DNA from: a virus
Lineage: Duplodnaviria; Caudoviricetes
IMG/VR virus record: IMGVR_UViG_3300042372_000291
Location: 43,732 to 107,731 of that record
Length of the DNA: 64,000 bases
Reading direction: 5' to 3' (one strand)
This document shows, piece by piece, positions 1,100-17,671 of this stretch. The translations under genes and the position numbers were made by a program. The notes under the pieces were generated by a model. It was not told where the DNA came from. It saw only the letters and a program-made list of their open reading frames with translations, and did not search any database. Position 1 is the stretch's first letter, and the number at the start of each line of letters is the position of its first letter.

Positions 1100-1359
1100 T
1101 CTAATGGATAAAGTTAGAAACCTAGAATTAGAAAACTATCTTGATGAACCTCAAGATGAATTAGCAACAAGGTTAGATAACCTAATCAAGAAAGGAGTGT
1201 ACACTAAATGAAAAAAAATGTACTAATTAGTTTCGTTACTGATGCAGAAACAGATCTGCAAGCAATCTTTGCACTAAACAGAATAATGGAGAAGCTCCCT
1301 GAATCTGATTTAGAAAAGTTTGAAGCATTTGAAGTTTTAGATGCTGTTCAATAAATAAG

Positions 1360-1387
1360 TTTTTGCGGAAATAAAACACCGCAAAAA
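1360..1387. terminator. Intrinsic terminator-like hairpin
   Basis: TTTTTGCGG-N10-CCGCAAAAA after a stop codon. Confidence 0.65.
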
Positions 1388-1399
1388 TTTTCGACAAAA

Positions 1400-1970: not shown

Positions 1971-2228
1971 ATGACTAACACTACTTACACAGACTTCCCA
2001 TTCACCGCTAAGGGAATCAACTTTGTTTCAAGAGTTTATTCTAACTCTCCATTCCTTTCACGCATTCAGCAATTGCCAGCAGGCGTATTTGAAAGCATGA
2101 ACATTGACGCAGTTTCAGATTTGCTAACTATTGAAAAAGAATACACCCTAGATGAGGTTCAAGCAGAACTAGACCGAGTCAATGCAGGCGGAAGCCATGC
2201 GTTTATTTTGTTAGGAGAAAACAACTAA
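1971..2228 (+). CDS. Hypothetical protein
   Basis: ORF with phage-like codon usage. Confidence 0.75.
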   Translation: MTNTTYTDFPFTAKGINFVSRVYSNSPFLSRIQQLPAGVFESMNIDAVSDLLTIEKEYTLDEVQAELDRVNAGGSHAFILLGENN

Positions 2229-2419
2229 TGATGACACGAAAAGACTATGTAAAAACTTCAAACATTCTAAAGGGTTTTTCTGATGAAATTCATCCAGCAG
2301 TTTTTGAGGATTTGGTTGAGGAGTTTTGTCAATACTTTGCAAGCGATAATGAAAACTTTGATAAAGTAAGATTTGAAAAGGCTTGCGGTGTTGATGAGTT
2401 AGGATTGATGCTAGCATGA
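2228..2419 (+). CDS. Hypothetical phage protein (MTRKDY...F..DN.NFD..RF..AC type)
   Basis: SD AGGAG; motif typical of small phage proteins. Confidence 0.75.
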   Translation: MMTRKDYVKTSNILKGFSDEIHPAVFEDLVEEFCQYFASDNENFDKVRFEKACGVDELGLMLA

Positions 2420-2518
2420 ATAGATTTATAACTTCCCTTGTTCAAATTCTTTTGTGGTTTCCAGTTATTCTTATTTTAGTATTTGCATACAGAGAACGCA
2501 AAAAGCAAAAGTAAAAAA

Positions 2519-2547
2519 AGATCCTAAGCATGATTTAAAACTGCTTG
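2519..2547 (+). ncRNA. Repeated H-type pseudoknot, copy 1
   Basis: AGATC-ctaagcat-GATTT-aaaac-TGCTTG. Confidence 0.7.
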
Positions 2548-2602
2548 AAGCTTCAACTAAAATTTTCGACCCCCGCAGTCGGGCGTGTCGCTTTACGTAC
2601 GA

Positions 2603-2618
2603 TGTGATTTTTACCACA
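2603..2618. promoter_or_regulatory. CRP/GlxR-type box
   Basis: TGTGA-ttttta-CCACA, 1 mismatch. Confidence 0.6.
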
Positions 2619-2914
2619 ATTTTGAGCGGCGTGTCGTTTTGATTTTGTCGGTGATAAATGATAGGATTACAGAGTAATTAAATGAAAGGAAAACTAATGA
2701 GTGAGTTTATTTTAATTAAGTCAGTATGCGGAGAAAAGGGTTCTTTCGTAGATGTCTATGATTTAGACCTTAACCCTCATGGAGTTGTTTGTTGTGATAA
2801 TTGTCGCAGCATTGTGGCTACTCGTGAAAATTGGTTTGCCGAACACGGCGTGTCGGTTTGATTTTGTCAGACCACTATGGTAAGTTTGCAGTATTGAAAG
2901 AAAGGAAATGAAAA

Positions 2915-3115
2915 ATGGATAGAATAGAATACGCAGTAGAAAGAATTCACAATTGTGATGAGTGTGGAGGAACGGGCTCTCAGTTTTGGGCTAATGGTGA
3001 AGACTATGACTTTGAGACTTGTGAGGAGTGTAATCCTCACGAACTAATCTTTGACTATGATGGAAATGTAGTTTGGGATAACGGAACGCTATTTACAACA
3101 CAGGAGGCTAACTAA
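2915..3115 (+). CDS. Small Cys-rich (Zn-ribbon-like) protein
   Basis: CDECGG...CEECNP; SD GAAAGGA. Confidence 0.75.
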   Translation: MDRIEYAVERIHNCDECGGTGSQFWANGEDYDFETCEECNPHELIFDYDGNVVWDNGTLFTTQEAN

Positions 3116-3116
3116 A

Positions 3117-3410
3117 ATGGGAAGTAATTTTGCTAATGATTTAGTTACGCTTGGAGATTTGGGTATTGTCTTAGACATTGAAAGTCAGATAGGTATGCAC
3201 CTTCAGGCTAATCATTATCCACCTGTTCCCAAGTCTATGGTCAAGCCTTGTGTTGAGGCTATTGATGCAGTAAATGATTTAGGACTATGGAATTTGGACA
3301 TTGAGTTGCCTGAAGGTATCTCATGGCGTGGTTTGACTACCGCCCCCGCTTCGGCTATTATTGAAGCACACCACTTAGACGCTTGGATTATTGAACGAGA
3401 GGAATACTAA
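3117..3410 (+). CDS. Hypothetical phage protein (HLQANHYPPVP motif)
   Basis: ORF with SD. Confidence 0.8.
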   Translation: MGSNFANDLVTLGDLGIVLDIESQIGMHLQANHYPPVPKSMVKPCVEAIDAVNDLGLWNLDIELPEGISWRGLTTAPASAIIEAHHLDAWIIEREEY

Positions 3411-3411
3411 A

Positions 3412-3621
3412 ATGGAATACACTTACTCACTTACTACCTCGTATGACGGGGAACTAGTAAACACCTTGCGAGTATCAGACATGATGGAAGCAGTAGACGC
3501 ATGGAATAAATGCGTAGACTATGGAAATGCTAAAGACTATGCTACTTATAACCTATCAGACCCAACAGGTAAAATGTATACAAAAACTTTCTATGCCAAT
3601 GGCGAAGTAGTTATAAAATAG
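3412..3621 (+). CDS. Hypothetical protein
   Basis: Start moved to ATG 3412 after GAGGA SD. Confidence 0.75.
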   Translation: MEYTYSLTTSYDGELVNTLRVSDMMEAVDAWNKCVDYGNAKDYATYNLSDPTGKMYTKTFYANGEVVIK

Positions 3622-3628
3622 GTATACA

Positions 3629-3841
3629 ATGAAAACTATGGATTATCGCATGGTTGATGTTCTCAACGCAGACCAATTAGAAGTAAATGATCTAATTGGT
3701 GTTGCGGATGAGATTGTAAAAGTTATTTCAATTGCCCCGCTTTCTGATGGGTTTTCACTTGTAATTGAAAATGAATTTGGTGAAAAAGATTTAATTGAAA
3801 TTCTTGATGATGAACAATTTGAGTTATTTATTTTAGAATAA
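3629..3841 (+). CDS. Hypothetical protein
   Basis: ORF in operon. Confidence 0.7.
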   Translation: MKTMDYRMVDVLNADQLEVNDLIGVADEIVKVISIAPLSDGFSLVIENEFGEKDLIEILDDEQFELFILE

Positions 3842-4076
3842 AAGCTGCAAAAAATTTCGAGGGGCCCGAAATGTCCGAATTGCCCCTTTACGTCCGATTT
3901 GATTTTTTCCCCTATTTCTGATAAGATTATTCTATGTTTAAGAAATCTAGTGAACAATTACGTCATCTGCAGGAGCTACGCAGATCTAATGCCGCTACCC
4001 CTTTACGTAACAAGAAAAAATACACTAGACAAAGTAACAAAAAAATGTTAGACTTAGAAAGTAAAGAGAGGCCCCA

Positions 4077-4796
4077 ATGAAATTAAAACGCTCTAATGAT
4101 AGGAAAGTTACTAATGCTGTATCACCAAATGGAAAAACACCAACAATCGCCAACACTTTTGGATTACCTAGCGGCAAGGCTTACTCATGTCCTGGTGAGA
4201 CCTCTGTATGCGCTAAAGTATGCTACGCAGGAAAGCTTGAAAAAGTCTACAAAGGTGTAAGAGATACACTATTACACAATTGGAATTTATTAAAAGACGC
4301 AGACCATGACACAATGGAAGCATTACTTACAGACATGATTAATGATTTCAAGAAAGACTGTGAAAAACGAGAAGCCCCAATGTTATTTAGAATTCACTGG
4401 GATGGCGATTTCTTTAGTGACGAGTACGCATTCGCATGGAAGCATGTTATCTTAAATAATCCTGATGTTCAATTCTGGGTTTATACACGAGTAGCCTCTG
4501 CTGCCAATATGTTAAAAGATATAGATAACCTATCTCTCTATTTCTCAACAGATAGTGAGAATAAAGAAGTTGCTATTAGTCTTAATAAAGATAAGGGAAT
4601 TCGTTTAGCATACCTTGCCGATACCTTCGCAATTGGGCAGGCAGATCTAAAGGCAATGATAGGCAAGCCTGGCGCTAAGTGCCCTGAAAATAAAAAAGCA
4701 ATTCCGTTAATTGACAAAGAGGGCTCTGCCTGTGTAAAATGTTCTCTGTGTGTCTATAATAAGGCGGACATAGTATTCTCTGCTAAAAAGCGGTAG
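4077..4796 (+). CDS. GP88-like protein (radical-SAM-related, Cys-rich)
   Basis: CPG..SVCAKVCYA and FRIHWDGDF motifs. Confidence 0.75.
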   Translation: MKLKRSNDRKVTNAVSPNGKTPTIANTFGLPSGKAYSCPGETSVCAKVCYAGKLEKVYKGVRDTLLHNWNLLKDADHDTMEALLTDMINDFKKDCEKREAPMLFRIHWDGDFFSDEYAFAWKHVILNNPDVQFWVYTRVASAANMLKDIDNLSLYFSTDSENKEVAISLNKDKGIRLAYLADTFAIGQADLKAMIGKPGAKCPENKKAIPLIDKEGSACVKCSLCVYNKADIVFSAKKR

Positions 4797-4880
4797 AGAT
4801 AAACAGAAAGGCAAAACTAGTGGAACTAATAATCCTATTAGGCATAGCCCTGCTAGCAACACTAATAATGGCTGGGGGGA

Positions 4881-4896
4881 AGTGATTTACCTCACA
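4881..4896. promoter_or_regulatory. CRP/GlxR-type box
   Basis: AGTGA-tttacc-TCACA upstream of TTGACA at 4931. Confidence 0.55.
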
Positions 4897-4993
4897 AATC
4901 TCAAATAATGAGATTTTTAGGGAAAATAACTTGACAAAGCCAAAAATAAATGAAATAATAAATACCATAACCAACAACAAAGGAGAAATACAA

Positions 4994-5158
4994 ATGACAG
5001 TATCAGTATCAACTTACAAGGTCGGCGACACTTACACTTCACAGAAGTCAAAGGTCACAGGCGTTATCAAGGAAATCGTACCAACAGACAAGAACACAGT
5101 TCGTGTCAAACTTGATGTAGAAGGTCAGACACGCTGGACAACTTGGAAAGCAAACTAA
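4994..5158 (+). CDS. Small SH3-like protein
   Basis: AAGGAG SD before ATG 4994; paralog of 5766..5933. Confidence 0.75.
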   Translation: MTVSVSTYKVGDTYTSQKSKVTGVIKEIVPTDKNTVRVKLDVEGQTRWTTWKAN

Positions 5159-5179
5159 TTCCTAACAAAAAACAGGAAA

Positions 5180-5209
5180 AGTCCTGAGCATGACTACTAA
5201 AACTGCTCA
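5180..5209 (+). ncRNA. Repeated H-type pseudoknot, copy 2
   Basis: AGTC-ctgagcat-GACT-actaaaac-TGCTCA. Confidence 0.75.
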
Positions 5210-5281
5210 ATTTGATTTCTTATCTAATAAATGTTAGACTAGATACCCCCAACAAAACACCAACAGAAAGGTAATACATAA

Positions 5282-5704
5282 ATGGCACGACAGAAAGCAA
5301 TTAGCGTAAAAATCGCAACACCAAAGGTAATCAAGGCACTAGAAACTCGTCTAGCAGAACTAGAAAAGAACTATGCCTCACAAGAAGCCAACGAAGCAAA
5401 GCATGAAAAGGCTATGGAGAAGTGGCGCAAGGAAGTAGCAAAGTTCGCTATGGCTAATTTTGCTAAGGCAGAAAACTTCCGCACAAACTATCGCTCATGG
5501 AACAAGACACTCAATGTTGATTTTGATTTAACAGTTAGTGAAACAGACTTTCCTAAAGAGCCTGAGAAGGACTACGAAGTTCTACACCGCCACTCATACA
5601 ATGAGATGAAAGAGGAGTTATCTAACGCTATCCGTATTCTCAAGATGACAGATGAGGAAGTAGTTTCTACTTCTACTTACAACGCTATCGCCCGATACTT
5701 GTAA
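5282..5704 (+). CDS. Hypothetical coiled-coil protein
   Basis: Strong SD and promoter upstream. Confidence 0.85.
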   Translation: MARQKAISVKIATPKVIKALETRLAELEKNYASQEANEAKHEKAMEKWRKEVAKFAMANFAKAENFRTNYRSWNKTLNVDFDLTVSETDFPKEPEKDYEVLHRHSYNEMKEELSNAIRILKMTDEEVVSTSTYNAIARYL

Positions 5705-5710
5705 AATTAC

Positions 5711-5738
5711 TTTCCTGAGCATGAAATAAAACTGCTCA
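5711..5738 (+). ncRNA. Repeated H-type pseudoknot, copy 3
   Basis: TTTC-ctgagcat-GAAA-taaaac-TGCTCA. Confidence 0.75.
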
Positions 5739-5765
5739 ACACCCCAACTAAGAAAGGAAAATAAA

Positions 5766-5933
5766 ATGACACTAGGCGGATACACTTACCAAATTGGTGA
5801 TTTATTTACAACAAGCAAGACAGGCGTTACAGGACGAATTGAAAAGTTTGTTCCACAAAGTAAAAATGTAACTCGTGTAATGTTGCGCTTAGCAAACGGA
5901 CAACAGCGTTTTGCTATGGTAAAAACCTACTAA
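5766..5933 (+). CDS. Small SH3-like protein (MTLGGYTYQIGDLFTTSKTGVTG...)
   Basis: Manual translation, 55 aa, GAAAGGA SD. Confidence 0.75.
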   Translation: MTLGGYTYQIGDLFTTSKTGVTGRIEKFVPQSKNVTRVMLRLANGQQRFAMVKTY

Positions 5934-5938
5934 TAAAA

Positions 5939-5967
5939 TTATCCTGAGCATGATAAAAAACTGCTCA
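5939..5967 (+). ncRNA. Repeated H-type pseudoknot, copy 4
   Basis: TTATC-ctgagcat-GATAA-aaaac-TGCTCA. Confidence 0.75.
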
Positions 5968-5984
5968 AAAAATTTTCGAGAAAA

Positions 5985-6000
5985 TGTGACCAAGATCACA
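5985..6000. promoter_or_regulatory. CRP/GlxR-type box
   Basis: TGTGA-ccaaga-TCACA, perfect; promoter TTGTAT-17-TAGACT at 6020-6048. Confidence 0.75.
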
Positions 6001-6078
6001 CAGCAGCTTTACGGGGGATTTGTATTTTTTCCATATTTCTGCTAGACTTGGTATATACCCAAAGAAAGGATGCCCCTA

Positions 6079-6342
6079 ATGATATCAACCGCATTAGCAA
6101 TACAAGACGCAACAAAAGAAGCAATTCACGACGAGGATGTTATGGACATGGCTCGCTCTATTTATCTAAGCAGACATGAAGTTTCTGAGGATGAGTTTAT
6201 CAGAATGATGTACATTTATTCTGCTCATTTGTCTGCTATGACTGCTACTCTAGTTACTCATGCTTGCTTGACTGAAAGCCAACTAAATGATATGCTAGAA
6301 ACAATAAAAGAAATGGAAGCCCTAGGAAAGGATATAGAATAA
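6079..6342 (+). CDS. Hypothetical protein
   Basis: SD spacing favours ATG 6079. Confidence 0.75.
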   Translation: MISTALAIQDATKEAIHDEDVMDMARSIYLSRHEVSEDEFIRMMYIYSAHLSAMTATLVTHACLTESQLNDMLETIKEMEALGKDIE

Positions 6343-6752
6343 TGGAAGAAACAAATACACACTACATGACACGAGAGTTTCTTGAAACTACCCTTGTACA
6401 AAACAAGGAGCGCATTCAGCAACTTGAAGAGCACATACAGACAGTAACTCAGCGCTCATATGGTGAGGCTGCAGAGCGTAACCGTATGCGTAATGAAATG
6501 CAAGAATGGACCTTAGAAAACTTAAGCGACGGTACCATTTCAGAAGGTTCTGCAGAAGAGATTGCAAGCATTTGCGGTTTTGAGTTAACAAATGAATTTG
6601 AATTAGAGGTTACAGTTCAATATTCAGTTACAGTTAATGCTCGTGATGAAGAATCAGCAATTAATTTAATTCATGATATTGATTTTGATTCAGTGTCATA
6701 TCCTGAAGGTGTTACATATCTATCATCCACTGTTGACAGAATAGATTTGTGA
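6342..6752 (+). CDS. Hypothetical acidic protein
   Basis: Coupled TAATG junction. Confidence 0.8.
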   Translation: MEETNTHYMTREFLETTLVQNKERIQQLEEHIQTVTQRSYGEAAERNRMRNEMQEWTLENLSDGTISEGSAEEIASICGFELTNEFELEVTVQYSVTVNARDEESAINLIHDIDFDSVSYPEGVTYLSSTVDRIDL

Positions 6753-6765
6753 TAGGGGGCTATCC

Positions 6766-6795
6766 AAGGACCTGAGCACGTCTTTAAACTGCTTT
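6766..6795 (+). ncRNA. Repeated H-type pseudoknot, copy 5
   Basis: AAGGAC-ctgagcac-GTCTTT-aaac-TGCTT. Confidence 0.7.
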
Positions 6796-6865
6796 CGCCA
6801 GGCTGATTAGGGCGATCATAGAAATACTATAGAGCTAGTTCATTGGGGGACTAAAAGAACCCATA

Positions 6866-6893
6866 CTACCTGAGCATGTAGGAAAAAGGCTCA
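6866..6893 (+). ncRNA. Repeated H-type pseudoknot, copy 6
   Basis: CTAC-ctgagcat-GTAG-gaaaaa-gGCTCA. Confidence 0.7.
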
Positions 6894-6910
6894 AAAAATT
6901 TTCGACCCGC

Positions 6911-6926
6911 TGTGATTTTGATCACA
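6911..6926. promoter_or_regulatory. CRP/GlxR-type box
   Basis: TGTGA-ttttga-TCACA, perfect. Confidence 0.75.
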
Positions 6927-7027
6927 TTTACGATGGTGTCCGATTTTTCCCAATTTCTAATAACCCTATTTGACTTTGTCAGTCCTGTCTGCTAAGATTG
7001 ATTCATATCAAGAAAGGATATTAATAA

Positions 7028-8044
7028 ATGGCACATGAACTAGAAACCCAAAATGGCGTTGCCTCATTCGCATCATTCCGTGAACCTGCTTGGCATGGTT
7101 TAGGAACTGTATTCACAGAAGAAAAAACAACAACAGAAATGTTGTCTGCTGCTAATCTATCTAATTGGAATGTTCGTCTTGAAGACGTAAATATTCCATC
7201 TCACTTATCATCAGATAAGAATTACCAATATGTTGTTCGTACTAATCCTACTGACAATTCCCAGACAGACATTTTAGGTGTTGTCGGTGAGCGTTACCAT
7301 GTTTTGCAGAATGAGGATTTATTCTCATTTGGTGATAACATTCTTGACGGTGGAGGTCGTTGGGAAACTGCTGGCTCTATTCGTGGAGGTCGTGTAGTAT
7401 TTGGTTCTCTTGCTCTTGAACGTGAGACAGTACTAGACCCTAGCGGTGTTGCAGATAAGGTAAAAACTTATTTGCTCATTAACACATCACATGATGGCTC
7501 AATCGCTATTCAAGCAAGCATTACACCTGTTCGTGTAGTGTGCGCTAACACTCTCAATCTTGCTTTAGGCTCTAAGCGTGGCAAGAACGCTATCAAGCAA
7601 TCTTTCAAAATCCGTCATACTCAGACGGCTAATGGTAAGGTTCAAATTGCTCGTGAGACTTTAGGTCTTGCTAATAAATACATGGACGCTTTTGATGTTA
7701 TGGCTAAGGCTATGATTGAAAAAGAAATCACCGCTGGTCAATTCAATGACATTATTCTTGCTGCTTACCCTAAGCCTGAAAAAGATGCTAAGGGCGCAAT
7801 CAAGAAGTGGGAAAACAAGGTTGATGTTATCAATGACATTTACACAGGCGAATTCAATGGTATGATTGCTAATACCGCTTGGGGTGCTTTCAATGCTCTA
7901 ACTGAACGCCTTGATTGGCACCGCTCTGCTCGTGGTGGGAATAACGAAAGTATTCTTGCTGCTGCTTCTGGTTTTGATGCTACAATTACAGCAGAAAAAA
8001 ATCGTTTGCTAAAAGTTGTAAAAGATGTTTTAGCGATAGCGTAA
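7028..8044 (+). CDS. DUF932 / TIGR03299 phage-plasmid family protein
   Basis: REPAWHGLG, ETAGS..GGR, LLINTSHDGS, TPVRVVCANTL motifs. Confidence 0.85.
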   Translation: MAHELETQNGVASFASFREPAWHGLGTVFTEEKTTTEMLSAANLSNWNVRLEDVNIPSHLSSDKNYQYVVRTNPTDNSQTDILGVVGERYHVLQNEDLFSFGDNILDGGGRWETAGSIRGGRVVFGSLALERETVLDPSGVADKVKTYLLINTSHDGSIAIQASITPVRVVCANTLNLALGSKRGKNAIKQSFKIRHTQTANGKVQIARETLGLANKYMDAFDVMAKAMIEKEITAGQFNDIILAAYPKPEKDAKGAIKKWENKVDVINDIYTGEFNGMIANTAWGAFNALTERLDWHRSARGGNNESILAAASGFDATITAEKNRLLKVVKDVLAIA

Positions 8045-8055
8045 ATAAATACGCA

Positions 8056-8083
8056 ACTCCTGAGTAAGAGTATAAACTGCTCA
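8056..8083 (+). ncRNA. Repeated H-type pseudoknot, copy 7
   Basis: ACTC-ctgagtaa-GAGT-ataaac-TGCTCA followed by a T-tract. Confidence 0.75.
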
Positions 8084-8215
8084 CTTTTTTATTTAGATCA
8101 AAAGCTGCTAAAAAAATTCGAAACCATGATATTTTTTTATATTGTTTAATTACGAACGACTTGCTTTTTTCCCCAGTTTTTGGTATTCTTTATTTACCAC
8201 AGAAAGGAAAAATAA

Positions 8216-8449
8216 ATGTCTAGTTTTCTAGAAAATGAAAATCAAATGGTTATTGATGCTATCTATCATGAGATTGGAGAAATGCTAGTTGAAGACTGGG
8301 TTAACTCCAATTTAGATGAAGGGCAGATGTTTGCAGATTTTAGATTTGCAGAGATGTCTGATGATAATTACATTAAGGGTAGATTTAATCTATTCTATGA
8401 TTTAAAACCAGGGGACCAATACTATCTAGAATGGGATGAGGAAGCATAA
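8216..8449 (+). CDS. Hypothetical acidic protein
   Basis: GAAAGGA SD. Confidence 0.75.
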   Translation: MSSFLENENQMVIDAIYHEIGEMLVEDWVNSNLDEGQMFADFRFAEMSDDNYIKGRFNLFYDLKPGDQYYLEWDEEA

Positions 8450-8625
8450 TGTTGGGTTATGACTTAGAGGATTTAAACATAATGATGGATTCACTAGCAG
8501 AGGTTATTCAGATTGAAGAATCTTCTCAAACCCCGTCAATTTCTGATAGGAATCTAGGAGGACTTAAAACAAGCTTGTTTTTCTTACAAGGCTTGTGGGC
8601 AGAAGGGTATTTTGACTGAGGGGCA

Positions 8626-8641
8626 TGTGTCCTAAATCACA
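8626..8641. promoter_or_regulatory. CRP/GlxR-type box
   Basis: TGTGT-cctaaa-TCACA, 1 mismatch; TTGACA at 8663. Confidence 0.55.
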
Positions 8642-8721
8642 CCCAAAAGGCTTTACGAACGCTTGACAAAAACCCCCATTTTTTGAGATAATTGCATTAC
8701 GACCAACAGAAAGGACCCTAA

Positions 8722-9474
8722 ATGCCAAATTATTGTTTTAATACCTTGACTATTCAAGGACCGAAAGAACAAGTAGACTCTATTAAGGCTAAGTTAAATG
8801 AGCCTTTTCAAAGACATCATGACCAATGGAATACAGAAACTCAGCAAATGGAAATAAAAGAGTATTTCTATAATAATCCTGTGTTTGCATTTTGGAATAT
8901 TTATAATCCAGTACAAGACGGTATCTCTAACGAGGTCTACCTAGGTCAGCCTGACCATACTATTCCATTTGCAGAACAAATGAAATTTAAGACTAATGAT
9001 TGGTATTCATGGAATGTCCGTAATTGGGGAACCAAATGGGATGTTGCTGTAGGAGATGAAGATAACTATCCTGATACAGAGTTATTAGAACATATGGATA
9101 GAGGAGAAGACCAGTGGGTTATTTATAAGTTCAATACCGCTTGGTCTCCACCTGCTCCTGCTATGGAGAAGTTGTCTGCTCTAGTTCCTAACTGTGTAGT
9201 TACTCTTTCCTTTGAGGAAGAAACAGGTTGGGGTGGCGAGTATGAGTTTGTCAATGGAGAAATGACTGCAGAATCTAATTATGATTCTAAGTGCCGTGAC
9301 TGTGATGCAGAAGACCAAATGGAATACTGCGAAAACGATTGTGGAGAAATCTGCAGTGCTTGTCATTGGTTAGGTGAGGCAGACCTAGAGTGTGTTGCAG
9401 AATGTGATGAGCACAAGATATACTTGGACGAGGAACATGTACCAGATTACAGAAAGGATGAAATCAATGTCTAA
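8722..9474 (+). CDS. DUF1281/YubB-like ferredoxin-fold protein with Cys-rich C-terminus
   Basis: MPNYC.N.L, WN..NWGTKW, F.TAWSPP motifs. Confidence 0.75.
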   Translation: MPNYCFNTLTIQGPKEQVDSIKAKLNEPFQRHHDQWNTETQQMEIKEYFYNNPVFAFWNIYNPVQDGISNEVYLGQPDHTIPFAEQMKFKTNDWYSWNVRNWGTKWDVAVGDEDNYPDTELLEHMDRGEDQWVIYKFNTAWSPPAPAMEKLSALVPNCVVTLSFEEETGWGGEYEFVNGEMTAESNYDSKCRDCDAEDQMEYCENDCGEICSACHWLGEADLECVAECDEHKIYLDEEHVPDYRKDEINV

Positions 9475-9670
9475 TTACTTATTAGAATATATGAAGATAC
9501 ATCTAATTAGTTTAGAACAAGATTTAGAGAATATAGCCCAAGAAATGGAATTGCTTGACCCTGAATCTAAAGCCTGTAAAGAATTAGACTATGAATATAA
9601 TCATATGTCAGGACAGATTCTTTCTACCCGCCATTTTATACAGGTAGGAGAAGAACATGCAGGCAATTAA
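9467..9670 (+). CDS. Hypothetical protein
   Basis: GAAAGGA SD before ATG 9467. Confidence 0.7.
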   Translation: MSNYLLEYMKIHLISLEQDLENIAQEMELLDPESKACKELDYEYNHMSGQILSTRHFIQVGEEHAGN

Positions 9671-9932
9671 TGAGTTAGAACCATATCTGCAGAAGGCTGT
9701 TGACGCTGGCATATCTGGATTGGATATCATGCACGGTCATCTCAAAACATTAATGCTGGAGGCTGAGCGGGAACTAGAAGAGGCAAGCCGCATTGAGATT
9801 GAGAACGACTATTCAGACGCAATAGAATCCATGGAGCGTAAATACTGGGAAGGCCAATGTGACGCTCTTTCACACCTATATGCATTAACATATCAACTAT
9901 CATTTGCCATAGCAGAAAGGGACGGGCAATGA
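9657..9932 (+). CDS. Hypothetical protein
   Basis: Overlapping operon ORF. Confidence 0.75.
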   Translation: MQAINELEPYLQKAVDAGISGLDIMHGHLKTLMLEAERELEEASRIEIENDYSDAIESMERKYWEGQCDALSHLYALTYQLSFAIAERDGQ

Positions 9933-10264
9933 GTTTAGATCTACAAGAACAAACACGTATGCTAGATGTATATCGTGATATTGAAGATATCATTGACAGA
10001 ATTAGTAAACTTCCTATTGGAATGCCGCTAGTCTGGGTATATGTCTGGGATGTTGCTCGTCAACTATGGCATGACATCATGGAAGGTCAGGAAGAAGAAT
10101 TCTGCACAGCCATGGATGAAGAAGAGATGTGGGAACTGTTTTGGACCCAGGCTGATAAGAATGGGTTTACTTTAGAATACGGAACAGAGGACCTATATGA
10201 GTCTATCCGTGATTGGATGTTTGACCAGGGTATTATTGAAGAAGTAGAAGAGGAAGAGGAATGA
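9929..10264 (+). CDS. Hypothetical acidic protein
   Basis: ATGA overlap. Confidence 0.75.
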   Translation: MSLDLQEQTRMLDVYRDIEDIIDRISKLPIGMPLVWVYVWDVARQLWHDIMEGQEEEFCTAMDEEEMWELFWTQADKNGFTLEYGTEDLYESIRDWMFDQGIIEEVEEEEE

Positions 10265-10331
10265 TGTACGAGCAGTTGACATTAAACTTAGATTTTGATA
10301 TCATTGAGCAAACTATAGAAAGGGAAGAGTA

Positions 10332-10679
10332 ATGGGAGCTCGTTGTACATTTGTATTTAAACAGTCAGAGGAGCAAGCTGTAGCACTATACAGTCATTGG
10401 GGTGAAGACTCTATGTATGAGGACCTAGCAGCAGCATTGCGACATGCAGCACCACGGGTAGGAGACCAATCCTACTACGTAAGAATGGCAGTTAGTTATT
10501 TACTGCAGCATAGTATTTTGGATGAGACAGGTTATGGCCTATATGCATGTAATCCTAATGACCTAGGTTTCATGGACCATCCAATTGTAATTAATCTATT
10601 AGATAGTACAATTCAAGATGACACTGGAATTCACACTATTGATGAATTTGTTAATTATCATGCAGGCCTAAAGGTTTAG
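10332..10679 (+). CDS. Hypothetical phage protein (MG.R...LYSHWG type)
   Basis: SD and own promoter; Y.HW motif common in phage early proteins. Confidence 0.8.
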   Translation: MGARCTFVFKQSEEQAVALYSHWGEDSMYEDLAAALRHAAPRVGDQSYYVRMAVSYLLQHSILDETGYGLYACNPNDLGFMDHPIVINLLDSTIQDDTGIHTIDEFVNYHAGLKV

Positions 10680-10685
10680 TTGAGG

Positions 10686-10775
10686 GTCCGTGTGGTGAGC
10701 GGACTGTATACGTGGGACGAGGGGTCCTCCCACGACAATAAGGGTGGAGCGCAGGCTGTGGTGGGCTTGCGCTCC
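10686..10775 (+). ncRNA. GC-rich three-hairpin structured element
   Basis: Stems GTCCG/CGGAC, CGTGGGA/TCCCACG, GGAGCGCAGGC/GCTTGCGCTCC. Confidence 0.5.
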
Positions 10776-10812
10776 CCCAACATCTTTGATACAATAAGAG
10801 AGGGTATAAATA

Positions 10813-11052
10813 ATGACATACAGGATTAGTAAGGGGATTACCCCCGAAGAGCGAGTAGCCAAAAGACTAAAAACAATTGTAGAAGACTTAGATTTAGACC
10901 TAGAACAAACTGGAGTAATGCTTGCTAGAGTATTGCCACATTTGACTTATACAAGATTAGTCACTATGATAGAAGCGGCACAAGAGGAAAAAGAGTTTAT
11001 TCTAAACCCTAAGAAGCGACATGAAAGTTGGATACAAAATGGACTATGGTAA
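10813..11052 (+). CDS. Hypothetical protein
   Basis: ORF with SD. Confidence 0.75.
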   Translation: MTYRISKGITPEERVAKRLKTIVEDLDLDLEQTGVMLARVLPHLTYTRLVTMIEAAQEEKEFILNPKKRHESWIQNGLW

Positions 11053-11347
11053 GGTAGCAGACATACTAGCAGTAATCTATAATGATGGTGTAGATTTAGA
11101 AGCAGTAGAATACCTGCCTTCTGAGTATTGGTTAGAGTGTGAGGACGGGATAACCCTTGCTACATTTATTTCATCTGGTTGGGCAGAGCCTACCGAAATG
11201 GGTAAATCTCAGTTAGAGTATGCCTGGCGTGTTCTTTGTGCTGCCAGAAGTCTTGACCCTGAAATAATGTATGAAACTCCACTTGAGTTTTTTGAGGCAC
11301 AGATAGTAGAAGCTGATGTTATCCCAATTGAGGAGGGTAGAAAGTAA
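11039..11347 (+). CDS. Hypothetical protein, paralog of the next gene
   Basis: Similar DY....IL...Y and G..LA....G....TE.G patterns. Confidence 0.7.
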   Translation: MDYGKVADILAVIYNDGVDLEAVEYLPSEYWLECEDGITLATFISSGWAEPTEMGKSQLEYAWRVLCAARSLDPEIMYETPLEFFEAQIVEADVIPIEEGRK

Positions 11348-11631
11348 TGCTTGACTATAAAACAAAATGCAATATTCTATCAGATCTATGGGAGAACTAT
11401 AGAGATGAAGAATCTTTTATAGATTTTATTGAATATAACGATCTTGGATTACCTATGGCATATATGCTACGGGAAGGTTTAGTCAACGAGGTAACAGAAA
11501 CAGGACAGTTATATATCAATGAGACATTTAATTTATTTATTGCTGCCCTTCAAATTAAAGAAGAAGAAATCAAAGAAGGCACAACATTAGATATCTTATT
11601 AGATATGGCTGAGAAAAAGCAAAACCCATAA
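11347..11631 (+). CDS. Hypothetical protein (FIEYNDLGLPMAY)
   Basis: Coupled ORF. Confidence 0.75.
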   Translation: MLDYKTKCNILSDLWENYRDEESFIDFIEYNDLGLPMAYMLREGLVNEVTETGQLYINETFNLFIAALQIKEEEIKEGTTLDILLDMAEKKQNP

Positions 11632-11662
11632 GATTTTTCGACAAACCTTTTAGGAATTTATT

Positions 11663-12323
11663 AGATTACGAACATCGAATATTTTTCCCATTTTTTTAGA
11701 TTACGAACAAACAATATTTTTCCCCAAACCCTATATCCAAACATATCTATATCCTTATACCAGGTATACTTCTTATAGTAGTAATTGGTATTCTTTATAT
11801 ACCCCGCCATTTTTGAAAAAATAAGATTACGAACGAGCTTTTTTAAGCCCAGCATTTTGACGGGCATCTTACCACACGACGGGCGTTTTGTCAAGGGGCG
11901 CAAAAAACGGGACGGTATAAAAAAGATTACAACCAATACCCTATATACAAACACTATATCCTGGATAAAATAGATTACGAAAGCTATAAATTTTTTCCTG
12001 GATTTTCCAAATATTATCCATATATTTTATAACATTTTGTTATTGTTTTCCACAATTTTGAGCAATTTTTATAACATTTCTATATCAAATATTGAGACAT
12101 GTTTTGCTCATATTGTGGGTAAATGGATACTTGACAAACAATTTGATATGTGGTATATGGGGAAATTCCCTGTTTTAAAATTTGGAAAGGGGGTTTTGCC
12201 GCTGCAGCATTACGAACGCCCCTCTTAAAAGTGGTCCATTCCCCACTATCCTCCACTTTCCTCCATTCATAGAATATAAAATTATCCACAGTAAGATTTA
12301 AATGTGGATAAACCTGTGGATAA
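11663..12323. repeat. Putative replication origin: AGATTACGAAC iteron-like repeats and DnaA boxes
   Basis: Repeats at 11663, 11698, 11824, 11924, 11972, 12208; DnaA boxes 12282-90, 12303-11, 12315-23; no credible ORF. Confidence 0.55.
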
Positions 12324-12330
12324 CTATGAA

Positions 12331-12963
12331 TTATTGCCTATATTTTTGTCTATTTATTTCCCAATTGTCAATATCTCTTGGTAGATCAAAGTCTTCTGTC
12401 CAATCATTTATCTTTACTACATCAAAGCTATGCTTGTTAGTTTTTAACTGTTCGTATAAACACCAACCACCAGGTAGATTAAAATAATCAGAAGACTCTA
12501 TAATAGAGCGTATTGTATTATCTAGTATAGGTATAGACTTTCCATTAAACCCAATTCCCCATATTTCTTTCCAAGGCTTTCCAGTTATCTCTGAAGCCCT
12601 ATCCCTAAGATAAAATGATAGATCAGATTTATCATTCATTATTGTTTCAACTGCTTCATCTGTAAAATATACATCTGCAAAAACGAGAATATTTCTCTCT
12701 GATGACCATATATCCCTGCTAGACCAAAACTTGGCTACATCTTTCCATGCTTTATCAACAGGGGGGACATAGGTTTGAGCCCCATTTACGGTATCTTCTC
12801 CATCATTACACACTATAACAATATTATCTGTATACTTAGAAAACTGCCTATAAGTTCTTTCAATTAATACTTCTTCTTCAATTAATAAACGATGCTTGGG
12901 GGTTCCCCTATAATTTCCCCACCTGGTTCCATTTCCTGCAGCTAATATTAAAACCTTTATCAT
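12331..12963 (-). CDS. Nucleotidyltransferase (NTP_transferase family)
   Basis: LILAAGNGTRW...PKH N-terminal motif. Confidence 0.8.
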   Translation of the reverse strand: MIKVLILAAGNGTRWGNYRGTPKHRLLIEEEVLIERTYRQFSKYTDNIVIVCNDGEDTVNGAQTYVPPVDKAWKDVAKFWSSRDIWSSERNILVFADVYFTDEAVETIMNDKSDLSFYLRDRASEITGKPWKEIWGIGFNGKSIPILDNTIRSIIESSDYFNLPGGWCLYEQLKTNKHSFDVVKINDWTEDFDLPRDIDNWEINRQKYRQ

Positions 12964-13152
12964 AAATCAAGAATACCATATCTGGTATCATAGATATATG
13001 TATTGTCGTCATGTTTATGAGTATGTTTATGCAGATATCTGCCCTCATTGTGGGAAAGATACTCATGAAACTGATTGGAAATTTGAAGCAGAATTACATA
13101 AAGAGTGGATATCATCTGGTAAAGCATCTTCTCAGGGGTGGTGGTCTATCTA

Positions 13153-13377
13153 ATGCCTAGCCAAGAATCAAAATGGTATAAAGATATAAGACTGATTAAG
13201 GCTTTGGACGAAATTCGTCAGAAGAATCTGGCCTTTATGTCTTATTGTTATTATTGTGACGCTAAGTCCATAGATATAAAAGCAGTCAAAGAAAAGCTAT
13301 ATCCTGTATGTGAAAAACATGATCAGGAAAATAACATAAATAAACTATTGGAGTCTCAATCCTCATTTGAGGAATAA
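13153..13377 (+). CDS. Small Cys-containing hypothetical protein
   Basis: CYYC...CEKH. Confidence 0.55.
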   Translation: MPSQESKWYKDIRLIKALDEIRQKNLAFMSYCYYCDAKSIDIKAVKEKLYPVCEKHDQENNINKLLESQSSFEE

Positions 13378-13565
13378 TACGAGGGTAGATCAGTAAAATC
13401 CCCATATGCTTCTTCGCATAATGGGCAATAACTATTAGCAGTATTTGTTTGATCTAGGCTAATCAGCAATAATCCCTTATCCTGCATATCTAATATTTCT
13501 GGATCTACTCGTCCATGGATTATAGGTATTAATTTAGCTTTACATGTTATACAGTTTGTTATCAT
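13356..13565 (-). CDS. Small Zn-ribbon protein
   Basis: CITC...PIIHG...CPLC. Confidence 0.65.
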   Translation of the reverse strand: MITNCITCKAKLIPIIHGRVDPEILDMQDKGLLLISLDQTNTANSYCPLCEEAYGDFTDLPSYYSSNED

Positions 13566-13640
13566 ACTAGGATAAGTTTAGCATACTTCTATATACCGCC
13601 CTGATTTGCATACTGCCCATATATGCGCTATAATTGATAC

Positions 13641-13712
13641 TAGAGACGTTAGCCCTCCCTTTCTGGGGCTATTTCCTCTTCTCCTGAGCATGAGGTTAAA
13701 AGGCTCCCTTTC
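13641..13712 (+). ncRNA. Putative small RNA ending in pseudoknot copy 8
   Basis: TTGCAT-17-TATAAT promoter; hairpin TAGCCC/GGGCTA; TCTC-ctgagcat-GAGG-ttaaaa-gGCTC. Confidence 0.6.
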
Positions 13713-13751
13713 TGTATTGAAATACTGCCCATGTTGTGAGATAATGAATAT

Positions 13752-13940
13752 ATGAGTGATTTAGATGAATTTATGAAAGACCCATGGAAACGATTTAATG
13801 AAATGCGTAAAACCCCACATGAATGTGATTATGACTATAGAATAGACTCATCAGGAACAATGTTTTTTGAAATATGTAAATTATGCTTAGATACAAAAGG
13901 GGTCGTTGAAATGAATAATAATGAGGAATTAAATGATTAA
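13752..13940 (+). CDS. Hypothetical protein, probably leaderless
   Basis: GATAAT 6 nt before ATG. Confidence 0.6.
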   Translation: MSDLDEFMKDPWKRFNEMRKTPHECDYDYRIDSSGTMFFEICKLCLDTKGVVEMNNNEELND

Positions 13941-14604
13941 AAATGAATGTAAAAAATGTGAGATGAGCTTTAAAGATCCTTTATATTGGGATGTTCATCA
14001 AACTATGTCAGATAATAGTATTTGGTGTGTAGTTAGAAAACCTTAACCATACCGCCCTGTTTAGGGCATATGTTGGTTTTAGTTTTCTATTTTCCGCCGA
14101 ACTTAAAAGATTGACTTTGGCCTATTTTTTCGCTATACTTGATATATGGGTAGAGTTGTAATTTGTGACATTTGTAAAAAAGAAATAGAGTTGCGATGGG
14201 GCATTTTTGGACATGATACTTTATACCGTCATAGAAAGGAACATAAGTGAACGAGCAAGAATTACGTGAACAGATAGCAAAAGAGATTGAAACAATTGAA
14301 ATTCAAACAAGTATTACAAACGCACTAGGTATGCGTATTATGGCTGCAAAAGTTGCAAGAGGAGAAAAATGAAAAAACAAAAATATTTTACTAAAAACAT
14401 AAATAATGAGTTGGAAGTCATTGATGAAGATATTGTTAATGATGTTATTAGGCAATACATTGAGAGAAAGTATATAGGGGTAATAGTACTATCTACCTTT
14501 ATTATTAGCTTTCTTCTTGGAGTTATTGCTTCTTGACATACCGCCCCACTTATGCTAAACTATTAAAGCAAGGGAATGCGTAACTATACAGAAAAGAGAG
14601 AGCA

Positions 14605-17196: not shown

Positions 17197-17273
17197 GCAG
17201 CAATAGCTCAGTTGGTTAGAGCCCCCGACTCATAATCGGGTCGTCGTAGGTTCAAGTCCTACTTGCTGCACCA
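17197..17273 (+). tRNA. tRNA with CAT anticodon (probably Ile2, otherwise Met)
   Basis: Cloverleaf; CCCGA-CTCATAA-TCGGG; encoded CCA. Confidence 0.9.
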
Positions 17274-17274
17274 A

Positions 17275-17345
17275 GGGATTGAAGCATTAAAGTGATGCTC
17301 AGGACTTTTAATCCTGAGAAGAAGGAGCATTACCTTCCAGTCCTA
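17275..17345 (+). tRNA. tRNA-Lys(TTT), atypical T-loop
   Basis: All four stems pair; loop CTTTTAA; T-loop AGCATTA. Confidence 0.7.
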
Positions 17346-17346
17346 C

Positions 17347-17420
17347 GCATCTGTAACTCAGTTGGTTAGAGTACCTGCCTTATATGCAGAGAGCCGTAGG
17401 TTCAAGTCCTACCAGATGTA
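17347..17420 (+). tRNA. tRNA-Ile(TAT)
   Basis: Cloverleaf; anticodon loop CTTATAT. Confidence 0.85.
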
Positions 17421-17424
17421 CGAT

Positions 17425-17496
17425 ACCTCTGTAACTCAGCGGAAGAGTAACGGACTTCTAATCCGTAAGTCGTAGGTTCGATCCCTACCAGGGGTG
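17425..17496 (+). tRNA. tRNA-Arg(TCT)
   Basis: ACGGA-CTTCTAA-TCCGT. Confidence 0.9.
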
Positions 17497-17517
17497 CTAC
17501 AATTAATATTCATTTTA

Positions 17518-17591
17518 GGTCTGTTAGCTCAGTTGGTTAGAGCGCTACCCTGTCACGGTAGAGGTCGTGGGTTCAAGTCCCATACAGATCG
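17518..17591 (+). tRNA. tRNA-Asp(GTC)
   Basis: CTACC-CTGTCAC-GGTAG. Confidence 0.92.
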
Positions 17592-17596
17592 CATAA

Positions 17597-17671
17597 GGCA
17601 CTATCGTCTATCGGTTAGGACATCGCCCTTTCACGGCGGAAAGACGGGTTCGATTCCCGTTAGTGCTGCCA
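17597..17671 (+). tRNA. tRNA-Glu(TTC)
   Basis: TCGCC-CTTTCAC-GGCGG; encoded CCA. Confidence 0.92.

Follow-up and report, generated by a model that had tools for sequence, protein, structure and literature searches.

The coremin motif (xrRNA-C) and its Watson-Crick variant, found in plant and other RNA viruses, are very small elements that act as a mechanical block and combine a short first hairpin with a conserved A-rich spacer of about 10 nt and a proposed pairing between loop and spacer (PMC6546385, PMC10321173). Known compact pseudoknot roadblocks stop 5'-to-3' enzymes or ribosomes. Luteovirus-type -1 frameshifting pseudoknots are compact H-type folds of about 28 nt with an A-rich loop in the minor groove, and the preQ1-I riboswitch aptamer is an H-type fold of about 30 nt with a variable P1, a conserved loop and an A-rich tail. 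In bacterial mRNAs, intrinsic terminator hairpins and REP-type intercistronic stabilisers sit after stop codons or between cistrons and are thought to stop 3' exonucleases or end transcription. A small H-type pseudoknot with a 3' RCCA is cut by bacterial RNase P in loop 1, with U preferred at position -1 (PMC12710915). Here we analyzed a 64,000-nt window of the 107,731-bp Caudoviricetes record IMGVR_UViG_3300042372_000291, in which a preliminary description had identified eight copies of a covarying H-type RNA pseudoknot of about 28 nt. The observation holds: all eight copies are real and lie on the + strand at the positions first given. Recomputed copy by copy, with stem 1 (S1), loop, 3' strand of stem 2 (S2') and the E-value in the covariance model search described below, the features are:

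2519-2546 (+), copy 1: S1 AGATC/GATTT, loop CTAAGCAT, linker AAAAC, S2' TGCTT, 5 of 5 stem 2 pairs, with a compensatory A-U in pair 1; begins 4 nt after the TAA that ends at 2514; E 7.3e-5.
5180-5208 (+), copy 2: S1 AGTC/GACT, loop CTGAGCAT, long linker ACTAAAAC, S2' TGCTC, 5 of 5 pairs; begins 21 nt after the TAA that ends at 5158 and is followed directly by a promoter-like TTGATT-17-TAGACT; E 1.3e-8.
5711-5737 (+), copy 3: S1 TTTC/GAAA, loop CTGAGCAT, S2' TGCTC, 5 of 5 pairs; begins 6 nt after the TAA that ends at 5704 and lies about 28 nt before the ATG at 5766, inside an operon; E 2.2e-11.
5939-5966 (+), copy 4: S1 TTATC/GATAA, loop CTGAGCAT, S2' TGCTC, 5 of 5 pairs; begins 5 nt after the TAA that ends at 5933 and is followed by AAAAATTTTCGAG; E 3.1e-11.
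6766-6794 (+), copy 5: S1 AAGGAC/GTCTTT, loop CTGAGCAC, S2' TGCTT, 5 of 5 pairs, one of them G-U; begins 13 nt after the TGA that ends at 6752; E 1.6e-6.
6866-6892 (+), copy 6: S1 CTAC/GTAG, loop CTGAGCAT, S2' GGCTC, 4 of 5 pairs (the AAAAGGCTC subtype, shared by 11 of 277 family members); follows no ORF and is followed by AAAAAATTTTCGAC; E 7.3e-5.
8056-8082 (+), copy 7: S1 ACTC/GAGT, loop CTGAGTAA with a U-G wobble in stem 2, S2' TGCTC, 5 of 5 pairs; begins 11 nt after the TAA of the DUF932 gene and is followed by the U-tract CTTTTTTATTT; E 1.8e-8.
13680-13706 (+), copy 8: S1 TCTC/GAGG, loop CTGAGCAT, S2' GGCTC, 4 of 5 pairs; lies between two promoter-like sites (13605-13634 and 13717-13745), after the hairpin at 13650-13671, and follows no ORF; E 2.8e-4.
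1357-1390 (+), ordinary hairpin in the same cassette slot: stop codon, then structure, then TTTCGAC; -12.3 kcal/mol, z -4.18, and 0 of 200 shuffles fold as well.

To determine whether the copies exceed chance expectation, we built a covariance model from 86 sequences of other contigs and searched both strands of the window, which returned 19 matches at E<=10. The best eight are exactly the copies listed above, all on the + strand, whereas the ninth has an E-value of 0.15, and the whole virus record adds nothing better than E 0.26. By contrast, a loose descriptor of any H-type pseudoknot is common by chance, with 77 hits on the + strand and 73 on the - strand, which shows that the signal is carried by the shared sequence together with the covarying stem and not by topology alone. 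The details of the preliminary description are largely borne out. The distance from the S1' start to the S2' start is 10 nt in seven of the eight copies and 12 nt in copy 2, the compensatory change in copy 1 (A-U in place of G-C) is real, and the hairpin does fill the same slot in the cassette. The placement mostly just after a stop codon holds for copies 1-5 and 7, and the placement before the next promoter holds by eye for copies 1, 2, 4, 6, 7 and 8, while copy 3 is followed directly by the ribosome-binding site of the next gene. The claim that the copies lie at the 3' ends of early transcripts, however, is not shown; copy 3 sits inside an operon.

The copies belong to a large family, with at least 119 IMG/VR stretches and 102 credible hits in prokaryotic assemblies of many phyla, including ordinary chromosomal sites, and with occurrences in cultured Mycobacterium, Synechococcus and Paracoccus phages. 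No Rfam family matches even at E<=10, and literature searches found no description of the fold. We found 277 unique family members in 2,011,250 bases, against 1 in reversed-sequence controls. Stem 1 covaries freely with all four Watson-Crick pair types: pairs 5-18 and 6-17 are paired in 86 of 86 seed sequences, with 4 and 3 pair types, respectively, and the covariation score of 0.330 compares with 0.077 +/- 0.010 in shuffles (0 of 500 reach it) and at most 0.076 in slid controls. Stem 2 (GAGCA/UGCUC) changes only by compensatory or G-U changes on the sense strand. Every variant cell in its pairs 1-4 keeps pairing, with 9 compensatory changes, 20 sense-strand G-U changes and 0 mismatches, and the 20 G-U wobbles would be A-C mismatches on the other strand; overall, stem 2 is 98.8% paired in the alignment. 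C8, U9, A22-A24 and stem 2 are conserved in 277 of 277 members or close to it. These patterns indicate a conserved RNA-level structure, as the preliminary description proposed, and do not support a DNA operator.

The fold is tied to gene ends on the sense strand. Of the 277 members, 165 lie within 30 nt after the stop of an ORF of at least 60 codons, whereas the mirrored orientation gives 42 of 277; 57 of 277 have no long ORF ending within 120 nt upstream. Among the 220 hits with such an ORF, the spacer from the stop codon to the first S1 pair peaks sharply at 5-6 nt (52 hits), only 2 have spacers of 0-3 nt, and no stop codon overlaps the 5' strand of S1. Annotated cultured phages show the same placement. 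Downstream, 18 of 183 instances have a same-strand tRNA gene starting at most 14 nt away, and none has one on the opposite strand or just upstream. A U-tract follows 39 of 277, against 3.5% of random positions, and in 5 loci an Rfam DUF2800 RNA starts at the base after the fold. The 28 nt after the fold are unstructured, and G makes up 3-10% at positions +2 to +7, against a background of 21%. Of the 277 members, 62 are followed by a ribosome-binding site and start codon within 50 nt and so lie inside operons, and a conserved Saccharibacteria copy lies inside a possible 14-codon leader ORF ahead of a chromosomal gene. Within the window, canonical terminator-like sites are not enriched in the early region (8 found, 7.6 expected), and none follows the early genes except one beside copy 8, which ends a short inferred transcript with no ORF.

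In our preferred reading, each copy is transcribed as part of the sense-strand mRNA and folds into a compact H-type pseudoknot with a 3-5 bp stem 1 of free sequence closed by an invariant C-G pair, a 2-nt loop 1 (C, U), a 5-bp stem 2, one unpaired junction base and an A-rich loop 3 (AAAC) that probably lies in the minor groove of stem 1. The fold would act as a gene-end roadblock that protects or defines the 3' end of the upstream message. Given the footprint of a ribosome terminating on the stop codon, the 5-6 nt spacing puts the fold at the mRNA entry site, just outside the footprint, where it would stay folded. There it would stop 3'-to-5' exoribonucleases entering from a downstream transcript end or from a processing cut, such as RNase P cleavage at an abutting tRNA, and the upstream message would keep its stop codon and live longer. 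Where a U-tract follows, the same fold may also serve as the structured half of an intrinsic terminator. The analysis itself establishes the fold (by covariation), its strand, the placement statistics and the breadth of the family, whereas the tertiary contacts, the nuclease block and any effect on RNA half-life or termination are inferred. The preliminary interpretation is thus partly supported: its suggestion of an exonuclease block or terminator substitute fits the context best, but rests on placement only, as no RNA run holds this phage, and we consider the roadblock about as likely as not. Nested folding gives only -3.3 to -6.5 kcal/mol for the copies; a strong block would depend on the inferred tertiary contacts, and a block of 3'-to-5' exonucleases by such a fold has not been shown. 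The near-invariant sequence across phyla is also more than a simple roadblock needs, and hints at a specific partner.

The alternatives are each less likely, but differ in weight. The protein-binding site also raised in the preliminary description is not excluded, and the very high sequence conservation gives it some weight. As a ribosome- or protein-partner element, the fold would be recognized by a conserved cellular machine, such as the terminating or post-termination ribosome or a universal RNA-binding protein, and would control termination, recycling, re-initiation or scanning at gene ends rather than nuclease access. This agrees with the sharp lower bound of the spacer, the loop and linker bases that are invariant across phyla and the start codon with a ribosome-binding site found 20-39 nt downstream in 56 of 277 members, and in eukaryotic viruses the coremin motif blocks scanning ribosomes (PMC10321173). 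However, 136 of 277 have no plausible start within 200 nt downstream, copies 6 and 8 follow no ORF, many copies directly precede tRNA genes, and the spacing is equally explained by a fold that must merely stay clear of the ribosome; we regard this reading as unlikely, though the foremost of the rivals. Slightly less likely is a terminator substitute, in which the pseudoknot itself would make RNA polymerase terminate in place of the usual GC-rich hairpin. The U-tracts, including that of copy 7, the slot shared with a hairpin-plus-T-run in the cassette and the lack of canonical terminators in the early region speak for it, but 238 of 277 members and seven of the eight window copies have no U-tract, copy 3 and 62 of 277 members are followed directly by a next gene, many copies lie 4-14 nt before tRNA genes that must be transcribed through, and the family occurs with bacterial, archaeal and T7-type polymerases.

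More doubtful is a tRNA acceptor-arm mimic, whose stacked S2 and S1 helices and 3' tail would imitate a tRNA minihelix, so that RNase P or another tRNA-processing enzyme would cut in loop 1 and punctuate phage operons. U at position -1 and G at +1 of stem 2 are invariant in 277 of 277, NCCA follows stem 2 in 25 of 277 against 1.6% of random positions, and the fold takes the first place in front of tRNA genes; yet 252 of 277 lack CCA, which follows 0 of 8 copies in the window, there is no T-loop mimic, and a cut in loop 1 would destroy the fold and leave the upstream RNA unprotected, which fits poorly with its fixed place after stop codons. A 5'-to-3' roadblock against RNase J-type exonucleases, protecting the downstream RNA as xrRNAs do against Xrn1, is comparably doubtful: it draws on the resemblance to coremin-type RNAs and on the 62 of 277 members that sit shortly before a gene start, but the placement is locked to the upstream stop codon, while the distance to the next start is broad or no start is found, and the second hairpin that coremin needs is not enriched downstream. 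A DNA-level or single-stranded-DNA element, for example a recombination site that shuffles early-gene cassettes, appears very unlikely. In related phages the alignments do break or jump at the folds, one joint (5209 to 5764) removes exactly one promoter-gene-fold unit, and homology between phages Labelle and Patience ends at the stop codon just before the fold, but dispersed repeats cause such joints whatever their function, the nearly empty zone of 0-3 nt after stop codons and the same-strand tRNAs point to RNA, and no shared recombinase is apparent across this range of hosts. Least likely are the decoy antitoxin RNAs of the preliminary description, imitating type III (ToxI-like) antitoxins. 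Size and H-type topology are similar, but this reading finds no support: the copies are dispersed and not in tandem arrays, S1 differs in every copy, Rfam gives no match, and the family spans many phyla and ordinary chromosomal sites.

Compared with the coremin motif, the fold shares the very small size, a first hairpin whose stem may vary while its structure is needed, a pyrimidine-purine closing pair, a loop holding a YGAD-type word (UGAG here), the conserved A-rich spacer of about 10 nt and the proposed pairing of loop with spacer. Its loop, however, has 8 nt and is not a tetraloop, stem 2 is a full 5-bp Watson-Crick helix, and the second hairpin that coremin requires is not enriched downstream (18 of 276 against 26 of 269 controls at -6 kcal/mol or below); its hosts are prokaryotes, which lack Xrn1, and its place is just after stop codons in DNA phages and bacteria. 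With the luteovirus-type pseudoknots it shares size, two short stacked stems, a 2-nt loop 1 that begins with C, one junction base, an A-rich loop 3 and a spacing of 5-6 nt from the ribosomal A-site codon. Frameshifting is nevertheless not supported: there is no slippery heptamer (0 of 106 cases), downstream frames close after a median of 6.5 (-1) and 5 (+1) codons, and the A-site codon here is a stop codon. Intrinsic terminator hairpins and REP-type stabilisers occupy similar positions, and an ordinary hairpin replaces the fold in one cassette of this window, but the fold is a pseudoknot, is far shorter, is conserved in sequence across phyla and is followed by a U-tract in only 39 of 277 members. 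Pseudoknotted tRNA-like acceptor arms and model RNase P substrates likewise have an H-type fold with the 3' strand of stem 2 at the end, and U before and G at the start of stem 2, whereas most copies here lack CCA and have no elbow mimic. The preQ1-I aptamer resembles the fold in size and general architecture, but lies in 5' leaders of queuosine genes and not after genes; stem 2 of the fold is fully formed without any ligand, and there is no expression platform.

Reading the sequence and recomputing each element confirms all eight copies of the pseudoknot named in the preliminary description at the coordinates stated there, all of them on the + strand; the observation therefore holds. We number the copies 1 to 8 in their order along the window. 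In its true register, the element consists of a first stem (S1) of 3-5 bp of free sequence closed by an invariant C-G pair, an 8-nt loop (C-U-GAGCA-W), the return strand of S1, an A-rich linker ending in AAAC (AAAA in copies 6 and 8), and UGCUC, which pairs with GAGCA of the loop to form the second stem (S2). S2 forms 5 of 5 pairs in six copies and 4 of 5 in copies 6 and 8. The distance from the start of the S1 return strand to the start of the 3' strand of S2 is 10 nt in 7 of 8 copies, and copy 1 carries a compensatory A-U pair. A covariance model built only from 86 sequences of other contigs returns 19 matches at E<=10 in the window. The eight best matches (E 2.2e-11 to 2.8e-4) are exactly these copies, and the next has E 0.15. 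The rest of the 107,731-bp virus record, whose last 64 kb form the window, adds nothing better than E 0.26. By contrast, a loose descriptor of any pseudoknot is common by chance, as common on the minus strand as on the plus strand, and was dropped as a test; the evidence lies in the shared sequence together with covariation. A near copy of the loop word (E 0.15 with the model) lies on the minus strand of a weak tRNA at 17275-17345, which Rfam calls at 42.3 bits but ARAGORN does not, within the tRNA cluster at 17197-17671.

To determine how widely the element occurs, we searched for the exact pattern of loop, linker and 3' strand of S2 in IMG/VR. The pattern hits at least 119 stretches, yielding 135 matches, 127 of them unique. 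A slightly stricter pattern hits at least 118 stretches of prokaryotic assemblies; of its 119 matches, 102 have at least two further S1 pairs and 17 look like chance. The named records include Saccharibacteria, Actinomycetes, Anaerolineae, Bacteroidota, Firmicutes, Alpha-, Beta-, Gamma- and Deltaproteobacteria, a cyanobacterium and two Methanobrevibacter bins. Cultured phages also carry the fold: Mycobacterium phage Labelle (after gene 85), Synechococcus phage S-EIVl (four model matches at E<=0.01, the weakest at E 0.008), Synechococcus phages S-RIM4 and S-H35, and the T7-like Paracoccus phage ParMal1. The copies in E. coli phages are weak, since phage flopper has only a 2-bp S1 and the copy in its relative SKA49 rests on its match to the model. 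BLAST hits to 39 Staphylococcus phage records cover only the first 25 query bases inside genes and lack the 3' strand of S2, and are treated as chance. At least one Saccharibacteria locus is ordinary chromosome, with a D-Ala-D-Ala carboxypeptidase, a HIT protein and valyl-tRNA synthetase as neighbours. In a Saccharibacteria bin (locus L147, 3755-3835), a chromosomal copy is overlapped by a possible 14-codon ORF whose stop codon lies in loop 3. It sits 17 nt before the ribosome-binding site of a 137-aa gene with no Pfam match. The same context occurs in loci L123, L155, L181 and L234, and the flanks are conserved in five bins.

S1 covaries freely. Among the 86 seed sequences of the model, S1 pairs 5-18 and 6-17 are paired in 86 of 86, with 4 and 3 pair types, respectively, and pair 4-19 is paired in 68 of 86. 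The covariation score is 0.330 against 0.077 in shuffles (0 of 500 reach it), and all slid controls give at most 0.076. The pair next to the closing C-G (alignment columns 6 and 17) is G-C in 0 of 86 seeds (UA 46, AU 30, CG 10) and in 1 of 90 sequences of a model-made alignment, an unexplained asymmetry that may reflect a tertiary contact. As the seeds fix S2 by construction, we rescanned 2.0 Mb of sequence allowing two mismatches, which gave 277 unique hits against 1 in reversed-sequence controls. Every variant cell in S2 pairs 1-4 still pairs: there are 9 compensatory changes, 20 G-U wobbles and no mismatch. Pair 5 is broken in 12 hits, eleven of which belong to the AAAAGGCUC subtype that window copies 6 and 8 also have. 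A count on the model-made alignment agrees: S2 is 98.8% paired, and two pairs change on both sides. The G-U wobbles would be A-C mismatches on the other strand, so the selected molecule is the sense strand. Only S2 makes this distinction, as S1 pair 4-19 does not tell the strands apart (9 G-U against 6 A-C). C8, U9 and A22-A24 are invariant in 277 of 277 hits although mismatches were allowed, whereas the base after UGCUC is not fixed. Nested folding alone gives only -3.3 to -6.5 kcal/mol; if the fold is stable, it must lean on stacking and tertiary contacts. By analogy with compact pseudoknots, these would be loop 1 in the deep groove of S2 and the A-run in the minor groove of S1, which would also explain why S2 is conserved in sequence while S1 is free.

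The fold is tied to the ends of upstream genes. Of the 277 hits, 220 have an ORF of at least 60 codons ending within 120 nt upstream, and 165 lie within 30 nt of such a stop, against 42 of 277 in the mirrored orientation. The spacer between the stop codon and the first S1 pair peaks at 5-6 nt.

Distribution of the spacer from stop codon to the first S1 pair
4 nt: 6 hits
5 nt: 22 hits
6 nt: 30 hits
7 nt: 11 hits
8 nt: 12 hits
9 nt: 15 hits
10 nt: 10 hits

Only 2 hits have a spacer of 0-3 nt, none has the stop inside the 5' strand of S1, and eight use the UGA of the loop itself as the stop. Given the footprint of the ribosome, a spacer of 5-6 nt puts the first pair at the mRNA entry of a ribosome with the stop codon in its A site. 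Downstream contexts are mixed. A same-strand tRNA gene starts within 14 nt in 18 of 183 instances, and never on the other strand. A U-tract follows 39 of 277 hits, against 3.5% of random positions, and NCCA follows 25 of 277, against 1.6% of random positions. A ribosome-binding site with a start codon lies within 50 nt in 62 of 277. The 28 nt after the fold are G-poor and no more structured than controls. In five loci the Rfam DUF2800 RNA (RF02960) starts at the first base after the pseudoknot, and the two motifs may form one unit there:

Locus L024, 285-445
Locus L220, 912-1071
Locus L153, 5432-5592
Locus L174, 5051-5208
Locus L223, 1598-1754

In the window, the spacers are 4, 21, 6, 5, 13 and 11 nt for copies 1-5 and 7, while copies 6 and 8 follow no ORF. 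A U-tract follows one of the eight copies (copy 7), and NCCA follows none. The early region has no excess of classic terminators (8 found, 7.6 expected), and a plain hairpin fills the same slot once, at 1357-1390. The neighbouring genes are small unknowns plus DUF932 and GP88 family proteins. A module AAAA(T)TTTCGA recurs at 1385, 2561, 3852, 5967, 6894, 8112 and 11632, right after the hairpin or pseudoknot and ahead of TGTGA-type boxes and early promoters. At 3841 and 8100 it is preceded by AAAAGCTGC, which looks like the 3' half of the pseudoknot without a stem 1. Two copies can stand close together on one strand: they are 48 nt apart in a Sneathiella bin (locus L184, 4174-4256) and 100 nt apart in the window (6766-6892), where they bracket a structured spacer with no ORF. 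Between the early genes and a minus-strand nucleotidyltransferase-like gene lies a non-coding stretch (11657-11724 and 11640-12320) with AGATTACGAAC-type repeats of 35-nt period, which looks like a replication origin.

We searched for sequencing runs that contain this phage. The 24 runs found are all DNA from freshwater or lake metagenomes, and none is RNA. Contigs from four DNA runs gave no usable variants inside the folds, only joints at repeat copies. In related lake phages one contig joins 5209 to 5764, which removes exactly one promoter-gene-pseudoknot unit, and other joints jump between pseudoknot copies (noted at window 5209-5764 and in locus L242 around position 593). Homology between phages Labelle and Patience stops at the stop codon just before the pseudoknot; Patience lacks the fold at the Labelle locus, so its published RNA-seq is uninformative here. 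The folds therefore mark mosaic boundaries, perhaps only because they are dispersed repeats.

The fold stays just clear of the terminating ribosome and often lies right before places where the RNA will be cut or ended. The reading that fits best is a gene-end roadblock, which would stop 3'-to-5' exonucleases so that the upstream message keeps its stop codon; where a U-tract follows, the fold may double as the structured part of a terminator. What the analysis demonstrates is a real, widespread and uncatalogued RNA fold and its placement at gene ends, whereas the nuclease block, any part in termination and the tertiary contacts are inferred from anatomy, placement and analogy alone, which constrain the proposed role well. 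The interpretation in the preliminary description, which favoured a conserved RNA structure over a DNA operator and offered a nuclease block or terminator substitute, a decoy antitoxin or a protein-binding site, is supported in part. If the roadblock reading holds, phages and many bacteria share a tiny, portable RNA module that fixes or protects message ends. This would be a missing piece in how compact phage operons without classic terminators control RNA stability, as well as a ready-made 28-nt part for stabilizing synthetic mRNAs in bacteria. Even with its function left aside, this is a large structured-RNA family with strong covariation that Rfam lacks, and its occurrence in cultured phages of Mycobacterium smegmatis, Synechococcus and Paracoccus makes it directly accessible to experiment. 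A more far-reaching view, which the evidence does not rule out but which we consider unlikely, is that the pseudoknot is the first prokaryotic counterpart of the viral exoribonuclease-resistant RNAs. In this view, it would be used from phages to Saccharibacteria and methanogen-associated elements as a universal gene-end cap, positioned by the ribosome footprint so that trimmed messages always keep their stop codon, and its invariant loop bases would form a sequence-specific triplex that gives direction-dependent mechanical strength.

The near-invariant sequence across phyla leaves room for a specific partner, and a ribosome- or protein-centred function is the main rival. A tRNA-like acceptor mimic or RNase P substrate, which RNase P would cut 5' of the helix, has real sequence support: U at position -1 and G at +1 of the helix are invariant in 277 of 277, NCCA is enriched after the fold, and there is an in vitro precedent (PMC12710915). 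The idea nevertheless fails for most copies, as the 3' RCCA expected directly after the acceptor-like helix is absent from all eight window copies, and NCCA remains a minority feature of the family. The fold also does not qualify as an intrinsic terminator, which requires a U-tract at once after a stable structure, given how few copies have one. A decoy of type III (ToxI-like) antitoxins has no support. Such antitoxins are tandem direct repeats of one unit of about 34-36 nt, but Tandem Repeats Finder on 2000-14500 finds no array at any copy, and the copies lie 100 to about 5,600 nt apart, each with its own S1. A search for the ToxN toxin family (PF13958) found nothing in the virus record, but also nothing in any of the 14 control genomes, so it says little; a decoy would target a toxin of the host. 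A DNA-level role is unlikely in view of the same-strand tRNA genes, the sense-strand wobbles and the spacing from stop codons. Frameshifting is rejected: of 106 folds with a 4-10 nt spacer, none has an in-frame slippery heptamer, such as would be expected 5-9 nt upstream, and the median open length is 6.5 codons in the -1 frame and 5 in the +1 frame.

No Rfam 15 family matches the element. At gathering score the window contains only 9 tRNA matches, a search of positions 2400-8200 at E<=10 returns one unrelated sR30 match, and in 54 further loci totalling 408,953 bases no family lies over any fold. Literature searches found no description of the motif, although large lists of candidate RNAs, such as a catalogue of about 10,000 candidate viral RNAs (PMC10690425), could contain it. 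The closest described systems are the coremin-type Xrn1-resistant RNAs of eukaryotic RNA viruses (PMC6546385, PMC10321173), luteovirus-type frameshift pseudoknots, terminator or REP-type stabilizer hairpins, pseudoknotted RNase P substrates and the preQ1-I aptamer. The preQ1-I riboswitch (RF00522) gives no match at E<=10, and the placement of the fold is tied to upstream stop codons rather than to a 5' leader controlling a ribosome-binding site or terminator. The coremin motif has a first hairpin of 3-5 bp with a YGAD tetraloop (PMC6546385); the stem length fits, but the loop here is 8 nt (CUGAGCAW) and only contains the word UGAG. The second hairpin that coremin needs directly downstream for resistance is not enriched: the 28 nt after the fold have a mean MFE of -1.95 kcal/mol against -2.48 in controls, with 18 of 276 at -6 kcal/mol or below against 26 of 269. 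The fold shares architecture with the coremin-type RNAs and the luteovirus-type pseudoknots, but fails their defining features where these could be examined.
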